A stretch of 28,867 bases of DNA, from the IMG/VR virus record IMGVR_UViG_2660238462_000003; one strand, given 5' to 3'. Shown piece after piece: positions 2,529-18,183 of the stretch (position 1 is its first letter; each line of letters begins with the position of its first letter). The notes below the pieces were generated by a model, which saw only the letters and a program-made list of their open reading frames with translations, had not been told where the DNA came from and searched no databases. A program made the translations under genes and the position numbers. This DNA is from a virus. Its lineage: Duplodnaviria; Heunggongvirae; Uroviricota; Caudoviricetes.

Positions 2529-2828
2529 ATGGAAATGAAAAATTCTGGCTTTATTGCCAGCGGCCCCGCTCGACCTGAATTTATGAACGGCGATATTTAC
2601 CGCGATAAATACGGCGGCACGGTAACGATTAAAGGCGTGGCAGAACGGCGCATCACTTACCGCCGTGAGGGGTATAGCTATGACTGCGTGATGCCTGTTT
2701 ATCAGTTCCGGCGTGATTTTCCCCTGGTATATGCCGCACCCCGCAGTAAGCCCATCAGCAGGGAAAAAGCGTGGGGAAATATCCAGAAAATGAAAACCAT
2801 GATTAACGGATTCAGAGGTAAAAAATGA
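2529..2828 (+). CDS. Hypothetical protein (99 aa) translationally coupled to primase
   Basis: SD AGGAA upstream; stop overlaps primase start (ATGA). Confidence 0.45.
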   Translation: MEMKNSGFIASGPARPEFMNGDIYRDKYGGTVTIKGVAERRITYRREGYSYDCVMPVYQFRRDFPLVYAAPRSKPISREKAWGNIQKMKTMINGFRGKK

Positions 2829-4579
2829 AACTGGCACCGAACGTAAAACAGCAGTCACGCGGCATAAAACACAAAGGAACAGAAGTCATTATTTTTGCGG
2901 GTAGTGATGCCTGGGCACACGCGAAACAATGGCAGGAACATGATGCGCGTATGGCCGGAGATAATGAGCCTCCTGTGTGGCTTGGGGAGCAGCAGCTATC
3001 CGAACTGGATAATCTGCAAATTGTGCCGGAAGGCCGAAAATCAGCACGCATATACAGGGCCGGATATCTTGCGCCTGTAATGATAAAGGCGATTGGTCAG
3101 AAGCTGGCGGCAGCAGGCGTACAGGATGCAAATTTTTATCCTGAGGGTATGCACGGCCAGGAGGTGCAGAACTGGCGCGAATATCTGGCCCGTGAACGCC
3201 AGAATCTTTCTGATGGTCTGGTCATTGAGCTTCCGGTAAAGCAAAAGGCGCAACTTTCGCAGATGGCGGACAGTGAGCGCGCGCAGTTGCTTGCCGATCG
3301 CTTTGATGGCGTTTGCGTACATCCTGAAAGTGAAATCGTTCACGTATGGCGCGGCGGGGTATGGTGTCCGGTCAGCACAATGGAACTTAGCCGCGAAATG
3401 GTGGCGATCTATTCAGAGCACAGGGCCACTTTCAGCAAGCGCGTAATCAATAACGCCGTGGAAGCGTTAAAAGTTATTGCCGAACCAATGGGCGAGCCGT
3501 CTGGCGATTTGCTGCCGTTCGCCAATGGTGCGCTTGACCTGAAAACGGGGGAATTTTCCCCGCACACGCCGGAGAACTGGATCACCACGCACAACGGCAT
3601 TGAGTACACGCCACCAGCACCAGGGGAGAACATCCGCGATAACGCGCCAAACTTTCATAAATGGCTTGAGCACGCAGCCGGAAAAGACCCGCGCAAGATG
3701 ATGCGTATATGTGCCGCGCTGTACATGATTATGGCGAACCGGTACGACTGGCAGATGTTTATTGAGGCCACCGGAGACGGCGGGAGCGGTAAAAGTACAT
3801 TCACACACATAGCCAGCCTTCTGGCAGGGAAACAGAACACGGTAAGCGCTGAAATGACATCGCTTGATGATGCTGGTGGACGTGCGCAGGTTGTCGGGAG
3901 TCGTCTTATCGTCCTGGCTGACCAGCCGAAATATACAGGCGAAGGAACGGGCATCAAGAAAATCACAGGCGGCGACCCCGTGGAAATTAACCCGAAATAT
4001 GAAAAGCGTTTCACGGCGGTAATCAGGGCGGTGGTGCTGGCGACCAACAACAACCCGATGATATTCACCGAACGGGCCGGAGGTGTGGCACGTCGTCGCG
4101 TGATTTTCCGTTTCGACAATATCGTCAGTGAGGCCGAAAAAGACAGGGAGCTACCGGAAAAGATTGCGGCTGAAATCCCCGTTATTATCCGCCGATTGCT
4201 GGCGAACTTTACCGACCCTGAGAAGGCACGGGCTTTACTACTGGAACAGCGTGACGGTGATGAAGCACTGGCAATAAAGCAACAGACGGATCCGGTTATT
4301 GAGTTTTGCCAGTTCCTGAATTTTCTGGAGGAAGCGCGCGGCCTGATGATGGGTGGCGGTGGTGATTCAGTGAAGTACACGACCAGGAACAGCCTTTACC
4401 GCGTCTATCTGGCGTTTATGGCATACGCGGGCAGGAGCAAACCGCTAAACGTGGCTGAGTTCAGCAAGGCCATGAAGCCAGCGGCGAAAGTTTACGGGCA
4501 TGAATATATTACGCGAAAAGTTAAGGGAGTAACGCAGACCAACGCAATTACAACAGACGATTGCGACGCGTTTTTATAA
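2825..4579 (+). CDS. P4-family / D5-type primase-helicase (satellite replication protein)
   Basis: 584 aa; Walker A GDGGSGKST and surrounding D5_N/primase-C-like architecture; followed directly by iteron array. Confidence 0.85.
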   Translation: MKLAPNVKQQSRGIKHKGTEVIIFAGSDAWAHAKQWQEHDARMAGDNEPPVWLGEQQLSELDNLQIVPEGRKSARIYRAGYLAPVMIKAIGQKLAAAGVQDANFYPEGMHGQEVQNWREYLARERQNLSDGLVIELPVKQKAQLSQMADSERAQLLADRFDGVCVHPESEIVHVWRGGVWCPVSTMELSREMVAIYSEHRATFSKRVINNAVEALKVIAEPMGEPSGDLLPFANGALDLKTGEFSPHTPENWITTHNGIEYTPPAPGENIRDNAPNFHKWLEHAAGKDPRKMMRICAALYMIMANRYDWQMFIEATGDGGSGKSTFTHIASLLAGKQNTVSAEMTSLDDAGGRAQVVGSRLIVLADQPKYTGEGTGIKKITGGDPVEINPKYEKRFTAVIRAVVLATNNNPMIFTERAGGVARRRVIFRFDNIVSEAEKDRELPEKIAAEIPVIIRRLLANFTDPEKARALLLEQRDGDEALAIKQQTDPVIEFCQFLNFLEEARGLMMGGGGDSVKYTTRNSLYRVYLAFMAYAGRSKPLNVAEFSKAMKPAAKVYGHEYITRKVKGVTQTNAITTDDCDAFL

Positions 4580-4589
4580 TTTTTTGTAA

Positions 4590-4815
4590 AAGCCATCTAC
4601 CCCATCTACCTGAACAAAATAAACGCATATTATTCAACATGATAAGTGGGTATAGGGCTAGGTAGAAGGCTAATAAAAGCTCTCTACCTCTTCTACCTGA
4701 TTTTATCAGTTTCAGGTAGCAGGGTAGACGGCAGGTAGAGGAGTCAAAAAGCTATCTACCCGCTGAAAGCCGCGCCATTACTGACATGATGAGCATTCGG
4801 GTAGATGGGTAGAGG
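4590..4815. repeat. Iteron array, putative satellite replication origin
   Basis: At least 11 copies of (A/T)CTACC / GGTAG(A/T) core in both orientations (e.g. catctaccccatctacctga, ctctacctcttctacctga, tcaggtagcagggtagacggcaggtagagg, gggtagatgggtagagg); AT-rich flank; immediately 3' of primase. Confidence 0.6.
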
Positions 4816-4864
4816 GGGGGAGGCACAACTAAAAACTTTTTAAACGAGGGGGGGGTGAAAATAA

Positions 4865-5179
4865 ATGCGCATACATAAAAATCACTTAATAAACATGCCA
4901 GCCGAAAACATGAATCAGGGGCGACAAATGACCAAAATTCGCAGAGACAGAACACAGGCAAAATATAAAGCGTTAGACATGACAGAGCTTTCCTTAAAGG
5001 TGGCAATCAAAGCGATAGACCACCACACACGGGCAGGATACGCGAAGGAACATCCCGACCTGATAAGCGCATTCATGACCACAGCAGCGGCAAACTTTGC
5101 CACGCTGACAGAACGGGAGATTGCCGAAGCGGAACAGGTGACAACCATCAATGTTAAAACCGGAGAGCAGACAGCATGA
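4865..5179 (+). CDS. Hypothetical protein (104 aa; alternative start at 4919)
   Basis: ORF with stop overlapping SSB start; purine-rich SD-like sequence upstream of both candidate starts; G8 tract immediately upstream. Confidence 0.4.
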   Translation: MRIHKNHLINMPAENMNQGRQMTKIRRDRTQAKYKALDMTELSLKVAIKAIDHHTRAGYAKEHPDLISAFMTTAAANFATLTEREIAEAEQVTTINVKTGEQTA

Positions 5180-5625
5180 CAGCACAGATAGCGGCTTACG
5201 GGCGGCTGGTGGCTGACCCGCAGTTAAAGACCACCAGCAAAGGGACACAAATGGCGATGGCGAGTATGGCGGTTCCCCTGCCGTGCAGCCAGGCAGATGA
5301 CGGAACGGCGACGATGTGGTTATCCGTCCTGGCGTTTGGCAGACAGGCCGACGCACTGGCAAAACACCACAAAGGCGAACTGGTGAGCGTGGCGGGTAAC
5401 ATGCAGGTAAGCCAGTGGACAGGCCAGAACGGCGAAACGCGGCGGGGCTGGCAGGTTATCGCAGACAGCGTAATCAGTGCGCGAACGGCGCGACCGGGCG
5501 GCAAAAAAGGCCAACAGGGGCAGGCTACTGACGAACTGAACAGAGCAAAACAACAGGCAGATCAGCAAGGAAGCCAGCCACCAGTGGGAGATAATGAGCA
5601 ATGGGGAGATGATATCCCGTTTTAA
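5176..5625 (+). CDS. Single-stranded DNA-binding protein (SSB-like, divergent)
   Basis: 149 aa; OB-fold-like N-terminus alignable to E. coli SSB, Q/G-rich linker, C-terminal acidic tail ending DDIPF. Confidence 0.75.
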   Translation: MTAQIAAYGRLVADPQLKTTSKGTQMAMASMAVPLPCSQADDGTATMWLSVLAFGRQADALAKHHKGELVSVAGNMQVSQWTGQNGETRRGWQVIADSVISARTARPGGKKGQQGQATDELNRAKQQADQQGSQPPVGDNEQWGDDIPF

Positions 5626-5642
5626 ATATTGCCAATAAAAAA

Positions 5643-5667
5643 GGCCGGAAAAAATAAATTTTCCGGC
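5643..5667 (+). terminator. Stem-loop between ssb-like and capsid genes (possible attenuator)
   Basis: ggccggaaaa-aataaa-ttttccggc inverted repeat; no T-run. Confidence 0.3.
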
Positions 5668-5841
5668 ATGCTACATAAATCCCGACCAAAGGGAGTGAAG
5701 ATATTAACACTAATTGTCCGCACTGAAGTTGTCACCCCAAAACTTTATACAACATTGCACTCGGTTGCATGTGTTCGCATGACAAATATCGGTGGTAGCA
5801 TATATCCACAATTATTTTTAATGAATGCAAAGAGGATGCGT

Positions 5842-6882
5842 ATGGTTGATTTATATTCGCCTACTCAGCTTGTACAGGTGGTTAATGCTGTAGATGTACA
5901 AAAACAACTAAATGCGTTGTTTACCAGTTTGTTTTTTACTCGCTCGGTAATGTTTGAATCGCGCGATATTATTCTTGATACAATCGACGATCCAAATATC
6001 CCAATTGCAGCGTTTTGTTCTCCTATGGTGGGTAGTAAAGTTTCACGTGACGAAGGGTACGAATCAAAAACAATTCGTCCAGGCTATATGAAGCCGAAAA
6101 GCAGCATTGATCCAAATAAGTTAGCTGTGCGCCCTGCTGGTGTATCACCTGAGCAATACAATGCTTTTGGGGCACGTAATATTAAAGTTAAACAGGCGAT
6201 TGTAAATCAGGCTAAAGCTATTCGTGCACGTATTGAATGGCTTGCTGTTCAGGCAATCACAACGGGGAAAAATATCATTGAGGGCGATGGTATTGAACGT
6301 TATGAGCTGGACTGGAATATAAAACCACAAAATATCATCACTCAGTCTGGCGGTACTGAGTGGTCAGGTAAGGATAAAGAAACTTTTGATCCAAATGATG
6401 ATATTGAGAGCTACGCAGAATTTAGTGAGGGCGTCACTAATATCATCATTATGGGTGGTAATGTATGGAAGAAATACCGTTCATTCAGAGCGATAAAAGA
6501 GGCTTTGGATACCCGTCGTGGTTCTAATTCCGAACTGGAAACGGCCCTTAAAGACCTTGGTGATTCGGTGAGTTTTAAAGGGTATATGGGCGATGTTGCG
6601 ATTGTTGTTTACAGCGGGCGTTATACCGACGAGGACGGAACAGAAAAACATTTCCTTGATCCTGATTTGATGGTGCTTGGCAATACGGCTCTTCAGGGGA
6701 TTGTCGCCTATGGCGGTATTCAGGATCCGGAGCTAATCCGAATGGGGCTGACTAAAGCCGAACTTGCACCGAAAAACTATATTGTGCCTGGTGATCCGGC
6801 TATTGAATATGTGCAGACACATTCAGCACCACAGCCAATACCGGCCCGCATCAATCGTTTTGTTACCGTTCGCATTGGCTAA
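5842..6882 (+). CDS. Major capsid protein, lambda gpE family
   Basis: Shared blocks with lambda gpE as recalled: NITQSGGTEWS, DTRRGSNSELETA, GDVAIVVYSG, MVLGNT, PGY.KPK; start chosen at ATG 5842 (SD GAGG 6 nt upstream; ORF opens at 5629); about 347 aa vs 341 for gpE. Confidence 0.85.
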   Translation: MVDLYSPTQLVQVVNAVDVQKQLNALFTSLFFTRSVMFESRDIILDTIDDPNIPIAAFCSPMVGSKVSRDEGYESKTIRPGYMKPKSSIDPNKLAVRPAGVSPEQYNAFGARNIKVKQAIVNQAKAIRARIEWLAVQAITTGKNIIEGDGIERYELDWNIKPQNIITQSGGTEWSGKDKETFDPNDDIESYAEFSEGVTNIIIMGGNVWKKYRSFRAIKEALDTRRGSNSELETALKDLGDSVSFKGYMGDVAIVVYSGRYTDEDGTEKHFLDPDLMVLGNTALQGIVAYGGIQDPELIRMGLTKAELAPKNYIVPGDPAIEYVQTHSAPQPIPARINRFVTVRIG

Positions 6883-6891
6883 GGGGGAGCA

Positions 6892-7233
6892 ATGGCTACT
6901 CATTACACTGAACTCATGGCTGGCACTGAAGCACTGGTGACTACGCTGGGGATATTTTCAGCTAATAAAGGGGTAATTCCTGCATTTACGCCACTGATGC
7001 AGGAAGATGCAACAGGTGCACTGGTGGTATGGGATGGTTCGAGCGTAGGTAAAGCGGTTTATGTTTCCGCTGTACAAATCGACACAGCGAAAAAAACACA
7101 GGCACAGGTTTATAAGACAGGTGTTTTAAATGTTGATGCTCTGAACTGGCCTGAGTCTGTAAAAGAACTGTCGGCAAAGGTTGCCGCGTTTGTTGGCTCA
7201 GGTATTTCTGTTCAGCCGCTGGCTCGTGTGTAA
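6892..7233 (+). CDS. Head decoration protein, lambda gpD family
   Basis: 113 aa; PAFTPLMQEDATGALVVWDGSSVGKAV and WPE...AFVGSGISV align with lambda gpD; strong SD AAGGGGGAG. Confidence 0.7.
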   Translation: MATHYTELMAGTEALVTTLGIFSANKGVIPAFTPLMQEDATGALVVWDGSSVGKAVYVSAVQIDTAKKTQAQVYKTGVLNVDALNWPESVKELSAKVAAFVGSGISVQPLARV

Positions 7234-7650: not shown

Positions 7651-7830
7651 TGGCGGGTCCTTTCCGGCGATCCGGTAGGCTACGGGGCGGCGACCTCGCG
7701 GGTTTTCGCTATTTATGAGCCTTTTTCGGGTGCTGGTGGTGGTTTTGTTGTTCGCTCTATCTCTATGAATAAAAAGGAAAAGATAAAGCCAATACACCAA
7801 CCTGAAACATTACTTAAGTGGGGATATTGA
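7651..7830 (+). other. Lambda-type cos site (cosQ - cosN - cosB)
   Basis: 7685-7696 GGGCGGCGACCT equals the lambda cohesive end; following CGCGGGTTTTCGCTATTTATGA matches the lambda left end; preceding GGGTCCTTTCCGGCGATCCGGTAGGCTACG closely matches the lambda right end (cosQ); downstream cosB region diverges. Confidence 0.8.
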
Positions 7831-8300
7831 TGAAATCGCACCTGATGAACAAAAAAAACATGGCGCAAAGCTGCCGTGTAAGTGCGACAGCGTTCGACAA
7901 GTGGGGAGTGACTCCCGTTGAACGTAAAGGCCGCGAGGCGTTTTATGATGTTGCCAGCGTAATAGACAATCGGGTTAGCAATGCAATTAACCAGATTACA
8001 GACGACAAAGGCGAGATTGATGATGATGAACTCCTACGAGTCAGGATCAGATTGCTGACAGCACAGGCAGAGGCGCAGGAGCTTAAAAACGAGCGCGAAC
8101 GCGGCGACGTTATTGATACAGCGTTTTGTATATACGTGCTTTCAAAATTGGCGAGTCAGATTTCTTCAATCATGGACAGCCTGCCGCTTGCCATGACAAG
8201 GAAGTTTCCCGACATGAAGCCGTCTATGCTGGATGGACTGAAAAAGAAGTTATCAGAGCCTGTAACGCATGCGCAAAACTTGACGAAAACATACCGCTGA
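7830..8300 (+). CDS. Terminase small subunit, lambda Nu1 family (in-frame part; C-terminal domain continues in -1 frame to 8371)
   Basis: RLLTAQAEAQELKNERERGDVIDTAFCIYVLSKLASQISSIMDSLPLAMTRKFPDMK aligns with lambda Nu1; SD GGGGA 5 nt before ATG 7830; -1 frame 8246-8371 encodes EVIRACNACAKLDENIPLMLSDYLMETAG matching the Nu1 C-terminus. Confidence 0.8.
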   Translation: MKSHLMNKKNMAQSCRVSATAFDKWGVTPVERKGREAFYDVASVIDNRVSNAINQITDDKGEIDDDELLRVRIRLLTAQAEAQELKNERERGDVIDTAFCIYVLSKLASQISSIMDSLPLAMTRKFPDMKPSMLDGLKKKLSEPVTHAQNLTKTYR

Positions 8301-8382
8301 TGCTGTCCGATTATCTGATGGAAACTGCCGGAAACGTACCGGATAAGTTGCAGCCGAATAAAGATAAGTAACGTAGTACGCT

Positions 8383-9060: not shown

Positions 9061-9479
9061 GGCCGGAACGTCTACATAGCTGCATCGCCGTAATGATGAT
9101 TCAGCCCACCAGCCAAATCAGCACAGCAACGACAGAATAGCCCGACACAGAAAAACCACGAATATGGGGTTTTTGTTATGACATGGTCATGATGACCACT
9201 CATACAAAACAGGTAAAGCCCACCAGCCTGATTAAAGGTTAACCGGAAAAAAGCCAGGTATCCAATCTCGATATGGGGATCCCTATATCGACATTAACGC
9301 CCACTAAAACTGTGCATATATGCATAGAAAAAGCATCCACCAGCTTTATGACGGATGCCGCTCATCTTATAAATAATCGTGTATTGCAGTGTGTATTGCG
9401 ACTCCTTTAAACGATAGGTCTGAGCATTCGTAATGTACTGTTTTTAAATTTTATTTTTTCCTGTCTTTTCATAAAGGCG

Positions 9480-9707
9480 ATGTATGCCGCCACCATTGAG
9501 AGTGAGCTGGATACGCAGTCAGCGATGGATTTTATTCTGGGCGCGAACAGTCAGGAGCAGCGGGAAAGGCTGACCGGCTGGATTGGTGAAATTGCCGCGT
9601 ATTACGCCGCAGCGCCGGTCCGGCTGGGAGGCGCAAAAGTACCGCACCTGATGCCGGGGGACTCACTGAACCTGCAGACGGCTCAGGACACGGATAACGG
9701 CTACTCC
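9480..9707 (+). CDS. Hypothetical protein, 3' end lost in scaffold gap
   Basis: ORF MYAATIESELDTQSAMDFILG... running into the N-run; unrecognised. Confidence 0.25.
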
Positions 9708-9717
9708 NNNNNNNNNN
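9708..9717. other. Assembly/scaffold gap (10 N)
   Basis: Run of 10 n characters. Confidence 0.95.
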
Positions 9718-9921
9718 CGCAGCTTTACGCTTGTCTTCTCTTATTTTGAAGTACAGATTCGTCAGGTAAGTCAGAAAGCCCAGAACCAGACTTCCCAGCA
9801 CACCAATAGCAGCCCACTGTGATGGACTGACCTGATCAAGCCACTGTAAAAACCAGTAGCCAGCACTGCCTGCGGAGGTGCCGTAGGCAATGCCCGTTGT
9901 TAACTTGTCCATGGATTTCAT
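9718..9921 (-). CDS. Holin, phage 21 S21 (pinholin)-like; C-terminus truncated by gap
   Basis: [63 protein letters not shown]... matches S21/EssD-type holin; strong SD GGAGGTGAGG. Confidence 0.8.
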
Positions 9922-10294
9922 AGCCTCACCTCCGCAAATAACGGATGGTGTACACGGTTCGGAACGAAGAGGGAAAGGTATAGAAGTTACATTAGCGTAA
10001 GGCCTGAACATCTATTCAAAAAGAAAAACGCCAGCGATTATTCTGGCGTAGCTGAAAGCATCATAAAATTATCAAATACGAAAATTACAAAATCATTAAA
10101 ACGCATCACGTTACATCATGTGTTTTTCTAAAAAAATCTTGATGAATATTTGTGGGGAGGAACACCAAAATATCTTCTGAAAACACTTACAAAATATGAC
10201 GTATTTTCATAACCGCATATCTCAGCAACTTTCCCAACAGAATATAAATTGTAGCTTAATAACCTTTCCGCCATCACCATTCGCTCTTCAAGAA

Positions 10295-11432: not shown

Positions 11433-12392
11433 TTAATTCACCATCAGTCTTAAAGCCAGTTCTTCCGGATAGGGATCGAAGTAATTCTGTGTAAGCAAGT
11501 AATCATTAGGATACTCACCCAGATAATGCTTCAGCAGAGTCAACGGCGCAAGAAGAGGCAATGTGCCAGAACGATAGTTAAGTATAACCTCGCTCAACTC
11601 TTTACGCTGGCGTGTACTTAAGTAGTTACTAAAATACCCCTGTATATGCATCAGCACATTCGTGTGATTTTTACGTGATGCAGGTTTTATGAGAATCGCC
11701 ATCAGCTTATCACGATACACCTCAAAGAATGATTCAAGGTCCGCCCACTCGTGTATTGCAGCCACAAATGGTCCCATATCTTTATAGCCTGCCTGACTAT
11801 GCGCCAACAACTGAAGCTTATAACGACTATGAAAAGCTAATAACTCTCTTCTTGATAATTTCTCCTTGTAAAGGTGATTGAGCTCATGCAAAGCAAAAAC
11901 TCTTTCAACAAAATTCTCACGAAGCACTGGATCATGTAATCGCCCATCCTCTTCAACCGGTAGCCAAGAAAACTTTTCCATCAAAGTGCTCGTAAATAGT
12001 CCCACTCCATCTTTACGACCTCGATTACCATTTTCATCATAGACACGCACGCGCTCCATGCCACAGCTGGGAGATTTAGCACAAACCACAAACCCCGATA
12101 CATCCTTTAATTTGTCCATATAAGAACGACTAAACTCTGTCATTCTCTCTGTCACATCCTCATTCTGGTCGTGGCTGAAACACATCCGTATATTTCCTTG
12201 CGTCGAGCGCACAAGACGTAGAGCAGGACGCGGAACTGGCAGCCCTATAGCCATTTCCGGACATACTGGTCTGAATGTTACCCATTCCACTAATTTGTCC
12301 ATTAAAAAGTCAGCTCTTTTGTGACCACCATCAAAACGAACAGCAGAACCGGCCAAACAACCGCTGATTCCAATCACAGGTTTTTTTATCAT
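11433..12392 (-). CDS. DUF523/DUF1722 (YbgA-like) family protein
   Basis: 319 aa; strong SD GGGGGAGGA; N-terminal Cys-containing DUF523-like region plus C-terminal DUF1722-like region (from memory of family features). Confidence 0.55.
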   Translation of the reverse strand: MIKKPVIGISGCLAGSAVRFDGGHKRADFLMDKLVEWVTFRPVCPEMAIGLPVPRPALRLVRSTQGNIRMCFSHDQNEDVTERMTEFSRSYMDKLKDVSGFVVCAKSPSCGMERVRVYDENGNRGRKDGVGLFTSTLMEKFSWLPVEEDGRLHDPVLRENFVERVFALHELNHLYKEKLSRRELLAFHSRYKLQLLAHSQAGYKDMGPFVAAIHEWADLESFFEVYRDKLMAILIKPASRKNHTNVLMHIQGYFSNYLSTRQRKELSEVILNYRSGTLPLLAPLTLLKHYLGEYPNDYLLTQNYFDPYPEELALRLMVN

Positions 12393-12584
12393 ATCCTCCC
12401 CCTTGACTAATTCATTAACAGATAAACTGTGTAGTGCACGGAATAAATTGCCTTTCTGGCGTCATCACTGACAATTTTTCTGTTATGGACTATTCCTAAT
12501 ATAGTATAAAAGTTCTTTAAGTGATTGGTCGTAATCATCTATCTTTCATACTTACCCTCAACTATCAAAAGTACAGGATTTATT

Positions 12585-13109
12585 ATGAAGTTATGGCCTG
12601 TGTTGACTGGCATTGCACTCTCTTTCACTCTTATAGCATGTAAGGCCCCGACACCACCTAAAGGTGTGCAGCCGATTACAAATTTTGACGCCAACCGCTA
12701 TCTCGGAAAATGGTATGAAATAGCTCGCCTCGAGAACCGGTTCGAACGTGGTCTGGAACAGGTCAGCGCTACTTATGGAAAACGGAACGACGGAGGGATT
12801 CGTGTACTTAACCGTGGATACGATCCAACGAAAAATAAATGGAGCGAGAGCGAAGGTAAAGCATACTTTACTGGAGATACTAAAACTGCAGCGTTGAAGG
12901 TTTCGTTTTTTGGCCCCTTCTATGGTGGCTATAATGTAATCAAACTGGATGATGAGTATAAGTATGCTCTTGTCAGTGGTCCGAACAGAGAATACCTATG
13001 GATTCTGGCAAGGACCCCAACTATTCCAGATAAAGTAAAAGCAGACTATGTGCGAACCGCTCAAAAGCTGGGATTCAATGTCAATGAATTATTATGGGTT
13101 AAACAATAA
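12585..13109 (+). CDS. blc: Outer membrane lipoprotein Blc (bacterial lipocalin)
   Basis: Lipobox LIAC; NFDANRYLGKWYEIARLENRFERGLE...KVSFFGPFYGGYNVI...YLWILARTPTI closely matches E. coli Blc; SD AGGA 6 nt upstream. Confidence 0.85.
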   Translation: MKLWPVLTGIALSFTLIACKAPTPPKGVQPITNFDANRYLGKWYEIARLENRFERGLEQVSATYGKRNDGGIRVLNRGYDPTKNKWSESEGKAYFTGDTKTAALKVSFFGPFYGGYNVIKLDDEYKYALVSGPNREYLWILARTPTIPDKVKADYVRTAQKLGFNVNELLWVKQ

Positions 13110-16878: not shown

Positions 16879-17133
16879 CTATTTAAATTCAACTTTTATC
16901 CCTTTGTTTAGCAGGGCATCAGAAACTGCCTTTTTTGTAACATTTATCCCTGCAAGCAATGCTTTATGCATTGGTCCCTTAAAAATTTCTACTTCTTCTT
17001 CAGTGAGTTTAGGCAATGTAATATAAATAACATCTTTCATCTGCTTGTTTTTATAGCATGAGCTTCTTGTGTGCTTACAATCGATATTTTCTTTATTTCC
17101 CAAAACATCATCCCCTTTATAATTCAGTTCCAC
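16879..17133 (-). CDS. Hypothetical small protein (up to 84 aa; non-ATG start likely, or 53 aa from internal ATG), AT-rich
   Basis: ORF convergent with the 472-aa gene; first codon at 17133 is GTG; weak SD. Confidence 0.3.
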   Translation of the reverse strand: MELNYKGDDVLGNKENIDCKHTRSSCYKNKQMKDVIYITLPKLTEEEVEIFKGPMHKALLAGINVTKKAVSDALLNKGIKVEFK

Positions 17134-17197
17134 ACATCAATTATTTAGTTATCACGAATGTCGTAAAACTAAAATTAGTAACAATAATTGCTCATAC

Positions 17198-17485
17198 CTA
17201 CTCTCTTCCATATAAAGCCAACACCCGCTTCATCGCGGCACTTTGACGACACTCCTTAAAAATCAGATTCGTGCTCACCTTTCCTTCCCGTTCTTCTCTG
17301 GTAGCGAACCGGTAATACACCGTTCGCCAGACCTTACCATCAACGACCAGGATTCCTGACCGCGCCATTTTAGCCGCAGCCTGATTTATGCTGGTTACGG
17401 TTGCGCCTGTTACCGCGGCAACGTCCTGCGCACAGAAGTTCTTATGAGTCCCCAGGTAATGAATAATTGCCTCTTTGCCCGTCAT
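17198..17485 (-). CDS. ren: Ren protein
   Basis: MTGKEAIIHYLGTH...VTSINQAAAKMAR...GKVWRTVYYRFATREEREGK... matches lambda Ren as recalled; immediately downstream of P. Confidence 0.8.
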   Translation of the reverse strand: MTGKEAIIHYLGTHKNFCAQDVAAVTGATVTSINQAAAKMARSGILVVDGKVWRTVYYRFATREEREGKVSTNLIFKECRQSAAMKRVLALYGRE

Positions 17486-18183
17486 ACACTTGCTCCTTTC
17501 AGCCCAAACTTCGCTTTGATTTCTGCGATCTTCGCCAGAGCCTGAACACGATTAAGCGGTCTCCCGCCCATGACAGGAAGTTGTTTTACTGGTTCAGGTA
17601 TCGCCTCACCACGGTTAATTCGCGCTGTCATACAGGCCAGTTCATCGGCAGCCTTGCGCCGTAATTCCGCATCAGTCAGCGCATTGGCCCGCATGTTCTG
17701 ATACAGGTTGGTAACCAGCCAGTAGTGCGCGTTTGATTTCCACGGATAAGACTCTGCATCTGGATACAGGCCACGTTTCCGGCAATACTCGTAAACCATA
17801 TCAACCAGCTCGCTGGCGTTTGGCAGCCCGGCGGTAACGGATGCTTCTTCCCGGCACCAGGCAACAAACTGCCCGGGTGATGGCAGGAATGGTCGATTCT
17901 GCCGACGGGCTACGCGCATTCCTGCGTTAACCTGTTCCATCGTGGTGATCCCGTTTTCCCGGAAAGCCAGAACCCACTGGCGGCGGATTTCGTTCAGTTC
18001 GTTCTGGTCCCGGTTAGCCAGGCTCGCCGGGAAAGTTGCCAGTAACTGGCTGAACACACCATTGATGATCTGCGCTACCTGTTGTACCTGCGGCTTTTCG
18101 TCGTACTGTTCCGGCATGTTGTTGGCGATCCGGCGCATCTGCTCACGGTCAAAGTTAACCATCTGTGCGGCGATGTTTTTCAT
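17482..18183 (-). CDS. P: Replication protein P (DnaB loader)
   Basis: 233 aa essentially identical to lambda P as recalled (MKNIAAQMVNFDREQMRRIANNMPEQYDEKPQVQQVAQIINGVF...). Confidence 0.9.
   Translation of the reverse strand: MKNIAAQMVNFDREQMRRIANNMPEQYDEKPQVQQVAQIINGVFSQLLATFPASLANRDQNELNEIRRQWVLAFRENGITTMEQVNAGMRVARRQNRPFLPSPGQFVAWCREEASVTAGLPNASELVDMVYEYCRKRGLYPDAESYPWKSNAHYWLVTNLYQNMRANALTDAELRRKAADELACMTARINRGEAIPEPVKQLPVMGGRPLNRVQALAKIAEIKAKFGLKGASV

Follow-up and report, generated by a model that had tools for sequence, protein, structure and literature searches.

An iteron field 3' of pri as the probable vegetative replication origin of a Gram-negative PICI embedded in a lambdoid prophage portal gene

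Orthology with the EcCICFT073 origin

Gram-negative PICIs have their origin of replication immediately 3' of pri-rep, with two sets of iterons placed around an AT-rich region (PMC6092414). In the case of EcCICFT073, a temperature-sensitive plasmid was maintained at 44 C when it carried a pri-ori fragment, and the pri-delta-ori and delta-pri-ori constructs were impaired; deletion of ori from this fragment left fewer colonies, although some remained (PMC6092414). Fillol-Salom et al. (2018, ISME J; PMC6092414) stated that this organisation of the origin is common to no other known replicon. Helper-embedded PICIs also keep a primase and an origin of their own (NAR Genom Bioinform 2023, PMC10111431), and the origin of these elements was not dissected in that paper.

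We analysed a 28,867-nucleotide stretch of viral DNA (IMG/VR record IMGVR_UViG_2660238462_000003), referred to here as the window. Its region 4580-4864 is very probably the vegetative replication origin of a Gram-negative PICI that is helper-embedded, lying in the portal gene of a lambdoid prophage. An initial annotation had suggested a satellite origin from the repeats found there. That reading is supported by orthology with the EcCICFT073 region shown by experiment to be required for Pri-dependent replication (PMC6092414). The conservation of the cores, their phasing on the helix, and the way they covary with the origin-binding domain of Pri all fit it. Every defining feature of the Gram-negative PICI origin type that sequence can reveal is present. 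The requirements for the region in cis and for pri would carry over by analogy with the CFT073 ortholog, whose spacers share about 73% nucleotide identity with those of the window. The kind of feature is already known, namely the origin of a PICI-type satellite, with an ortholog mapped and tested in 2018; what annotation gains is a fixed position for the ori of this island, a precise map of its iterons, and a predicted melting site. The parts of the region, in window coordinates, are as follows.

4580-4864, no strand: entire origin region, between the pri stop and a conserved ATG; ortholog of CFT073 L016 9997-10287
4596-4610, plus strand: first pair of module L, TCTACC at 4596-4601 and 4605-4610, 9 bp apart; hexamers invariant in 16 islands
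4611-4648, no strand: AT-rich spacer of 26% GC, proposed DNA-unwinding site; positioned as in PMC6092414 Fig. 2a
4649-4666, minus strand: degenerate iteron GGTATA (4649-4654) and iteron GGTAGA (4661-4666); from the motif map and island comparison
4683-4697, plus strand: second pair of module L, TCTACC at 4683-4688 and 4692-4697; 87-bp direct repeat with 4587-4613, family D2
4715-4739, minus strand: triplet of module R, GGTAGC at 4715 and GGTAGA at 4723 and 4734; from the motif map
4755-4760, plus strand: single TCTACC of module R; invariant in 16 islands
4763-4783, no strand: conserved non-iteron block CTGAAAGCCGCGCCATTACTG, in the 54%-GC spacer 4761-4799; nearly invariant in the alignment
4800-4813, minus strand: terminal pair of module R, GGTAGA at 4800 and 4808; from the motif map
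4814-4820, plus strand: G7 tract adjoining the last iteron, lineage-specific; length 6-8 in close relatives
4832-4845, no strand: invariant block AAAACTTTTTAAAC; from the 16-island alignment
4846-4855, plus strand: GAGGGGGGGG, a Shine-Dalgarno-like element with the G8 tract; 9 nt before ATG 4865

The initial annotation had reported a field of at least 11 CTACC cores in both orientations, and a motif count gives exactly 11 within 4597-4812. Five are on the plus strand (core starts 4597, 4606, 4684, 4693, and 4756) and six on the minus strand (4661, 4715, 4723, 4734, 4800, and 4808). The other 28.6 kb of the window hold 24 copies, a background rate that predicts 0.18 copies for 216 nt (Poisson P about 1e-16). 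For the hexamer TCTACC, ten of the 12 copies in the window fall in the field, every other 250-nt stretch has at most one, and no second TCTACC cluster occurs anywhere in the 28.9-kb window. The degenerate copy GGTAT at 4649-4653 is an intact GGTAG in relatives (L005-L010). The field lies immediately 3' of pri, whose stop is at 4579, and its first iteron is at 4596. Module L (about 4587-4700) consists of two plus-strand iterons, a 38-nt spacer of 26% GC, one or two minus-strand iterons, and two plus-strand iterons, such that the AT-rich spacer 4611-4648 is flanked by the iterons at 4596-4610 and 4649-4697. Module R (about 4711-4816) consists of three minus-strand iterons, one plus-strand iteron, a 39-nt spacer of 54% GC, and two minus-strand iterons. 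The order of the modules is L-R in the window and in CFT073, and R-L in L081-L084 and L091.

Neighbouring cores are 8-11 bp apart, and the clusters are separated by 22, 23, 44, and 55 bp. Spacing relative to the helical repeat had been put forward as a check on the iterons, and among periods of 8-13 bp the best fit was at 10.5 bp (R=0.70; compared to random placement, P about 0.04), a statistic that for the window by itself is modest. The best period was 10.5-10.75 bp in five of six origins examined, origins with other cores included: the window, CFT073, L014, Serratia (R=0.92), and Morganella (R=0.89). Since the best phasing period is about 10.5 bp, the iterons lie on one face of the helix.

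Further scans of the region returned little else. No DnaA box (within one mismatch), IHF site, or GATC occurs in 4560-4900, which fits a self-contained initiator-helicase origin. A scan of 4400-5000 for promoters and terminators found none, sigma-70-like promoters included. An Rfam scan of the whole window found no family at gathering score, so no known RNA element explains the region. The single-stranded DNA of 4585-4825 is predicted to fold strongly (z=-3.8), a by-product of the inverted iterons that does not discriminate between models.

To relate the region to the tested origin, we mapped the published EcCICFT073 primers on the CFT073 genome. The delta-ori clone ends 4 nt past the pri stop, and the insert of pri-ori runs on to about 22 nt inside the next ORF; primer rep-2c is one G off RefSeq CFT073 and has no exact match, so this 3' end of the tested fragment is placed to within a few nt. 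CFT073 L016 9997-10287 lies inside the fragment carried by pri-ori and missing from the pri-delta-ori plasmids. By these primer positions, the tested "ori" is exactly the 11-iteron region orthologous to 4580-4864.

The two origins each have 11 copies of the TCTACC/GGTAGA core, with the iteron sets arranged in the same order and orientation about the AT-rich spacer, and they share the blocks CTGAAAGCCGCGCCATTACTG and AAAACTTTTTAAACGAGGGGG and the downstream arrangement of an ORF followed by SSB. In CFT073, as in the window, the 11-core layout directly follows the pri stop, and the two Pri proteins are 95-100% identical in each of four regions. They differ in that the spacers have diverged by about 27%, and in that the middle set has three direct and two inverted copies in EcCICFT073 but two direct and three inverted in the window. 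EcCICFT073 has G5 and lacks the G7 tract, whereas the window has G8 and G7, and EcCICFT073 occupies a chromosomal insertion site, whereas the island of the window sits in a prophage portal gene and has its own TerS.

The comparison set comprised 16 E. coli and Shigella islands, EcCICFT073 among them. All 16 have 9-12 CTACC/GGTAG cores in conserved order and orientation, even at about 72% spacer identity. Columns of the core hexamers are invariant in 52 of 66 cases, compared to 68 of 219 outside the cores (Fisher p=9e-12, odds ratio 8.2). Position is conserved at nine of the 11 iteron sites. Sites 4661 and 4715 are lineage-specific, with compensating copies nearby in relatives; the other two copies of the triplet, 4723 and 4734, are invariant. 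Across 5426 complete E. coli genomes, 544 have a match to the intergenic region, and in 468 the match covers 80% or more of it; every match is chromosomal and beside a primase gene.

The conserved block CTGAAAGCCGCGCCATTACTG is not an iteron. Of 50 distinct CTACC-class origins, 46 contain its heptamer ATTACTG, as does one origin of the TGTTCA class, and the sole ATTACTG copy of P4 is inside the P4 ori. The GC-rich spacer 4761-4799 holds this block, for which the origin model described below does not account.

The Pri initiator and its island

The genes on which the argument draws are listed here.

2825-4579, plus strand: Pri (Pri-Rep), 584 aa; Pfam D5_N, DUF5906 (SF3 helicase), and Pox_D5; TIGR01613; PDB 7OLA
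4286-4552, plus strand: C-terminal winged-helix-like domain of Pri, residues 488-576, proposed iteron reader; phmmer match to 1KA8
4865-5179, plus strand: next ORF, PHROG 1231, function unknown; start at ATG 4865 or ATG 4928
5176-5625, plus strand: island-encoded SSB, part of the replication module; Pfam SSB, TIGR00621
7245-7628: AlpA-like regulator; Pfam PF05930
about 7830-8372: island TerS; from annotation

Downstream of the field, the PHROG 1231 ORF and SSB are followed by a lambda-E-type capsid protein, a D-type decoration protein, the AlpA-like regulator, and TerS. In E. coli JNE23-011, which has an identical region, the island is a block of about 10.9 kb, integrase first, that splits the portal gene of a lambdoid prophage in two, and this is the configuration described for helper-embedded PICIs (PMC10111431). 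Bro, an Icd-like protein, primase, SSB, and captured late genes add to the likeness to such elements, for example 11capE (PMC10111431). The hallmarks of a PICI that we looked for were an integrase, an AlpA-type regulator, unidirectional genes, a length of about 10-15 kb, and the lack of tail and lysis genes. The island has them, with int, HTH, Bro, Icd-like, pri, SSB, capsid, decoration, AlpA-like regulator, and TerS genes in the L001 annotation.

The start of the ORF at 4865-5179 is ambiguous, because PGAP places it at 4928 in the clade of the window and PHROG 1231 aligns from residue 22. Every one of the 16 islands in the alignment has an ATG at the 4865 position, and it is there that PGAP begins the ORF in the CFT073 group.

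Pri is recognized by NCBIfam model TIGR01613, which describes the P4-family primase, and PDB entry 7OLA (deposited as "DNA primase") matches residues 190-432, the SF3 core. Residues 488-576 match PDB 1KA8 (phmmer E=8e-6), the winged-helix origin-binding domain of P4 alpha (PMC2777425). Residues 1-150 contain no Pfam domain, and hence no catalytic primase domain by that measure, which makes the priming step uncertain; their sole match is PHROG 2850, a family of unknown function.

Homologs of Pri were collected together with their adjoining origins. A scan of genome contigs with a single protein found 3 loci, and an alignment-based scan of IMG/VR found 80. In a set of 79 IMG/VR loci, all 64 with a C-terminus of the type found in the window have 9-13 CTACC and 0-1 GTTCA cores, and all 15 with a P4-alpha-like C-terminus ending in EDWLP have no CTACC. 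Of these 15, twelve instead use GTTCA (8-10 cores, TGTTCAC or GTGTTCAT) and the other three GGTATAC, in both cases with the layout seen in the window. The proteins of the GGTATAC loci differ from their GTGTTCAT neighbours by few C-terminal residue changes, such as KTRGVVTN to KARGMVTN. More distant proteins extend the pattern: the layout of the window is built from TGTTCAC(C) in Serratia aquatilis (primase 53% identical) and vB_KppS-Ant (41%), and from TGTTCAT in Morganella (52%).

Within the CTACC class the C-terminal domain is 81-99% identical, even where identity over the N-terminal 150 residues falls to 47%. Between CTACC-class and TGTTCA-class Pri it is about 30% identical, compared to 51-70% for the helicase core, making the C-terminal domain the most divergent part of Pri between classes. 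The iteron class, whether TCTACC, TGTTCAC/T, or GGTATAC, tracks the C-terminal domain of Pri. The C-terminal winged helix presumably binds the TCTACC iterons directly, judging from the homology and covariation of the sequences.

We infer the following mechanism. Induction would lead to synthesis of the island Pri (2825-4579), an SF3 helicase with a P4-alpha-like C-terminal winged helix. The C-terminal domain would bind the 11 TCTACC(Y) iterons, presented on one helix face in modules L and R. A multimeric Pri complex would then open the 26%-GC spacer at 4611-4648, the putative melting site, where the Pri helicase would load itself. Priming and a host polymerase would copy the island, aided by the island SSB encoded just downstream.

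The guanine tracts and other readings of the repeats

The G7 and G8 tracts, at 4814-4820 and 4848-4855, are the sole runs of six or more G or C in the window. The initial annotation gave these coordinates correctly and described the tracts as bracketing the repeats, which they do not: both are 3' of the field, G7 (tract 1) adjoining the last iteron and G8 (tract 2) a further 28 nt away. Nor is the presence of both an excess for the window, because base composition alone gives 1.7 runs of at least seven G or C (mononucleotide shuffles), compared to the 2 seen in 28.9 kb.

Tract lengths were compared over 75 related loci. Tract 2 is G5 in 51, G3 in 6, G6 in 6, G7 in 8, G8 in 3, and G10 in 1, with GAGGGGG as the modal form. 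Tract 1 is absent from 54 and present in 21 (G6 in 1, G7 in 17, G8 in 3); the loci without it, as in distant relatives, have AGGAGGTG or CAAGGGGAGG in its place. Lengths of 6, 7, 8, and 10 for tract 2 occur between flanks identical to those of the window. Of the 132 matching E. coli records, 3 have G8, about 54 have G6 or G7, and about 44 have G5, and the G8 records often share identical flanks with G6 or G7 records. For tract 1, G7 is the main allele in complete E. coli genomes, with 56 exact matches and 31 more at 95-99% identity, G6 and G8 included. In the clade at 94% identity or above, tract 2 measures 5-10 and tract 1 measures 6-8, ranges to which sequencing error may contribute, as differences in tract length between assemblies can arise from slippage or from homopolymer sequencing error.

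Since lengths do vary among related islands (3-10 for tract 2 and 6-8 for tract 1), invariance cannot be held against the earlier suggestion that the tracts are prone to slippage, although tract 1 is missing from most of the islands compared. G7 is a lineage-specific G-rich stretch beside the last iteron, and G8 is an expanded form of a conserved Shine-Dalgarno-like element, GAGGGGG.

The second part of that suggestion, that slippage modulates downstream expression, fares less well. In its strongest form it would make G7 and G8 a contingency (phase-variable) locus, tuning or switching the downstream replication and capsid genes. The position of tract 2 in the ribosome-binding region would suit such a locus, as would the many lengths of tract 2 found within flanks like those of the window and over all relatives, the spread from G5 to G8 among the 132 E. 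coli records, and the three lengths of tract 1. We nevertheless consider it unlikely. The 3' edge of tract 2 stays a constant 9 nt from the ATG, the predicted anti-SD duplex has nearly the same energy from G5 to G9 (-11.6 to -12.2 kcal/mol, compared to -6.4 for G3), and the predicted minimum free energy of the local mRNA is -13.8 kcal/mol throughout G5-G9. With the distance from the Shine-Dalgarno element to the ATG fixed, and pairing and folding unchanged, an expression switch is unsupported. Against it also are the scan of 4400-5000, which found no promoter spanning either tract, the absence of tract 1 from 54 of 75 loci, the plain G5 that is modal for tract 2, the capacity of homopolymer sequencing errors to produce such length differences, and the PGAP start in the clade of the window at 4928, 73 nt downstream. 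Both tracts are slippage-prone and polymorphic in length, and probably have little functional consequence.

The tracts lie outside any ORF that tolerates the observed changes of one nucleotide. A reverse-strand ORF at 4752-5006 runs across both, and was rejected as a gene: it begins with TTG, it overlaps the plus-strand ORF, and the tract differences of one nucleotide among near-identical islands would shift its frame.

The repeats themselves could be operators for a regulator (AlpA-like, HTH, or Pri as its own regulator) of the downstream ORF-SSB-capsid operon, instead of or in addition to an origin. The field does lie between two co-oriented blocks of genes, with a ribosome-binding site directly downstream, and origins of the iteron kind often serve in regulation as well. 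A secondary regulatory role beside origin function is possible. As the primary explanation, operators are very unlikely: neither a sigma-70-like promoter nor a terminator is found in 4400-5000, the motif class follows the C-terminal domain of Pri across 79 loci and not the variable downstream module, and the ortholog is a cis requirement for replication (PMC6092414).

A pac/cos-type packaging site bound by the island small terminase is highly improbable. The island has a TerS of its own at about 7830-8372, and TerS sites often take the form of short repeats. The field, however, is 3 kb from terS, and across the compared islands it follows the primase and not the packaging genes. The same ori is found upstream of modules with a lambda-E-type capsid, an HK97 capsid with protease, a protease-capsid fusion, or TerS first, and thus persists in islands with quite different packaging modules, the cos-dependent EcCICFT073 included. 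In EcCICFT073, moreover, the deletions of the cos sites (strains delta-cos.1 and delta-cos.2) are distinct from that of ori. The repeat motif also varies in step with Pri. A chance or low-complexity repeat without function, for which only the shortness of a 5-nt core could speak, is refuted by the enrichment of the core, by cores that keep position, orientation, and sequence where spacers have diverged to about 72% identity, and by covariation with Pri, the same layout recurring with different cores in Serratia, Morganella, and vB_KppS-Ant.

Relation to P4 and other replicons

The assignment as a Gram-negative PICI origin invites comparison with other replicons in which an initiator acts on repeats. 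SaPI origins, known here by description, resemble it in having the ori immediately 3' of the initiator-helicase gene and two iteron sets flanking an AT-rich region (PMC6092414), with the match of the Pri SF3 core to PDB 7OLA as a further point in common, and differ in regulatory organisation and in iterons without sequence similarity to those of the window. Classical iteron plasmid origins of the RepA/pi type, taken as tandem direct iterons of 17-22 bp with DnaA boxes and often IHF sites or GATC clusters, were rejected as a match, as the cores here are 6-8 bp long, occur in both orientations, and have no DnaA box, IHF site, or GATC beside them.

In the case of P4, the origin would work like the P4 alpha/ori system. 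In both, the initiator joins an SF3 helicase to a C-terminal origin-binding domain of the winged-helix type, and the iterons are short (6-8 bp), in both orientations, and about one helical turn apart. The P4 core TGTTCAC(C) serves relatives of the Pri of the window that are 40-55% identical to it. Module R, with three minus-strand iterons, one plus, and two minus over 93 bp, mirrors the annotated type-1 repeats of the P4 ori, which have the same series of orientations over 96 bp. Module L, with two plus-strand iterons, an AT-rich stretch of about 43 nt, and then minus-strand iterons, resembles a 120-bp unit of P4 crr (two plus, 43 nt, two minus, one plus). A match in spacing between the P4 ori and module R was at first entertained and then downgraded to similarity: the gaps are 10, 11, 25, 40, and 10 in P4 and 8, 11, 22, 44, and 8 in module R. 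Because they differ by 3-4 bp, with cores aligned on their shared ACC end, the layouts show resemblance and not identity.

The element is nonetheless not a P4 replicon, because its iteron differs, its site is single and compound, and its initiator is shorter. The type I iteron of P4 is TGTTCACC, whereas the core in the window is TCTACC. The P4 ori (9310-9413) and crr (4291-4590) are about 4.7 kb apart, whereas the modules of the window are adjacent in one compound field. Pri has 584 aa, compared to 777 for P4 alpha, and no N-terminal primase domain is detected in it by Pfam.

A joint reading of these comparisons can be offered tentatively, as a possibility on balance somewhat doubtful. The PICI origin would consist of two permutable modules, R corresponding to the P4 ori and L to a crr unit, retargeted at least four times (TCTACC, TGTTCAC, TGTTCAT, and GGTATAC) together with the winged helix of Pri, giving orthogonal replication groups in shared cells; CTGAAAGCCGCGCCATTACTG would be the start of helicase loading or priming across iteron classes and P4. 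If this were true, P4 and PICI replicons would form one family, contrary to the 2018 statement. Permutable modules, iteron class switching along with the winged helix, and the conserved block are leads, not results, and they could bear on the coexistence and cross-replication of satellites and on the relatedness of P4 and PICIs. Taken in the direction of the primase gene, the elements of P4 run inverted relative to those of the window.

Arrangement of the origin halves and the conserved block of module R

The two halves of the origin, L and R, follow one another in the order L then R in the window and in CFT073, the ortholog with a tested origin. In the related loci L081-L084 and L091, by contrast, the order in the 300 nt after the primase stop codon is R then L, and the origin therefore looks like an assembly of two modules that can be moved. 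Within module R, the spacer holds a GC-rich, non-iteron block that is nearly invariant:

4763-4783, CTGAAAGCCGCGCCATTACTG, conserved non-iteron block in the spacer of module R

The ATTACTG heptamer of this block is found in 46 of 50 distinct origins of the CTACC class and in one origin of the TGTTCA class (L091), while in L081-L084 a palindrome takes the place of the block. The heptamer is shared with satellite phage P4, in which its sole occurrence (position 9342) falls inside the P4 ori.

The initiator and its iterons

Among proteins with the same iterons, the most variable part of the primase-helicase Pri is its N-terminal 150 residues (47-95% identity). A Pfam comparison of residues 1-150 (window 2825-3274) found no catalytic primase domain, neither Toprim nor AEP nor zinc ribbon. 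In L097, L099 and L100, iterons of a fourth class, GGTATAC, follow the primase stop codon, at the positions held by GTGTTCAT in L096. The primases of these three loci differ from that of L096 in just a few residues of the C-terminus, as in the change from KTRGVVTN to KARGMVTN; on sequence comparison these residues are candidate specificity determinants. As many as 4-5 copies of the primase/origin region occur in some E. coli genomes. Several islands that share an iteron class can therefore coexist, and their presence in one genome raises the question of cross-replication or incompatibility.

G-rich tracts and the start of the next ORF

A match to the canonical G-quadruplex pattern lies at 4799-4820 (GGG-TAGAT-GGG-TAGA-GGGGGGG; four G3 runs, with loops of 5, 4 and 1). 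It consists of the last two iterons and the G7 tract, and is confined to the close clade of the window. The longest allele seen for the second tract, G8 in the window, is a G10 in IMG/VR locus L023 (position ~2912), with flanks identical to those of the window. The ORF that follows the origin has two candidate start codons, and the choice between them is ambiguous: the position of ATG 4865 is conserved and a G-rich SD precedes it, and ATG 4928 is favoured by PGAP and by the PHROG 1231 profile. The 63 nt between the two are in frame, and changes between clades in this stretch are mostly non-synonymous.

Insertion of the island in a prophage portal gene

The whole island, from int to TerS (~10.9 kb), interrupts a lambdoid prophage portal gene and has the same orientation as that gene, which matches the helper-embedded PICI configuration (PMC10111431). 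PGAP annotates the portal gene halves as partial pseudogenes:

window 9472-10254, portal gene half
L001 (annotated E. coli JNE23-011 locus) 5329-6162 and 17073-17855, portal gene halves

The island carries lambda-E-type capsid and D-type decoration genes of its own (window 5629-7233). A second capsid/decoration set lies a few kb downstream, in the surrounding prophage (window 11564-12977).
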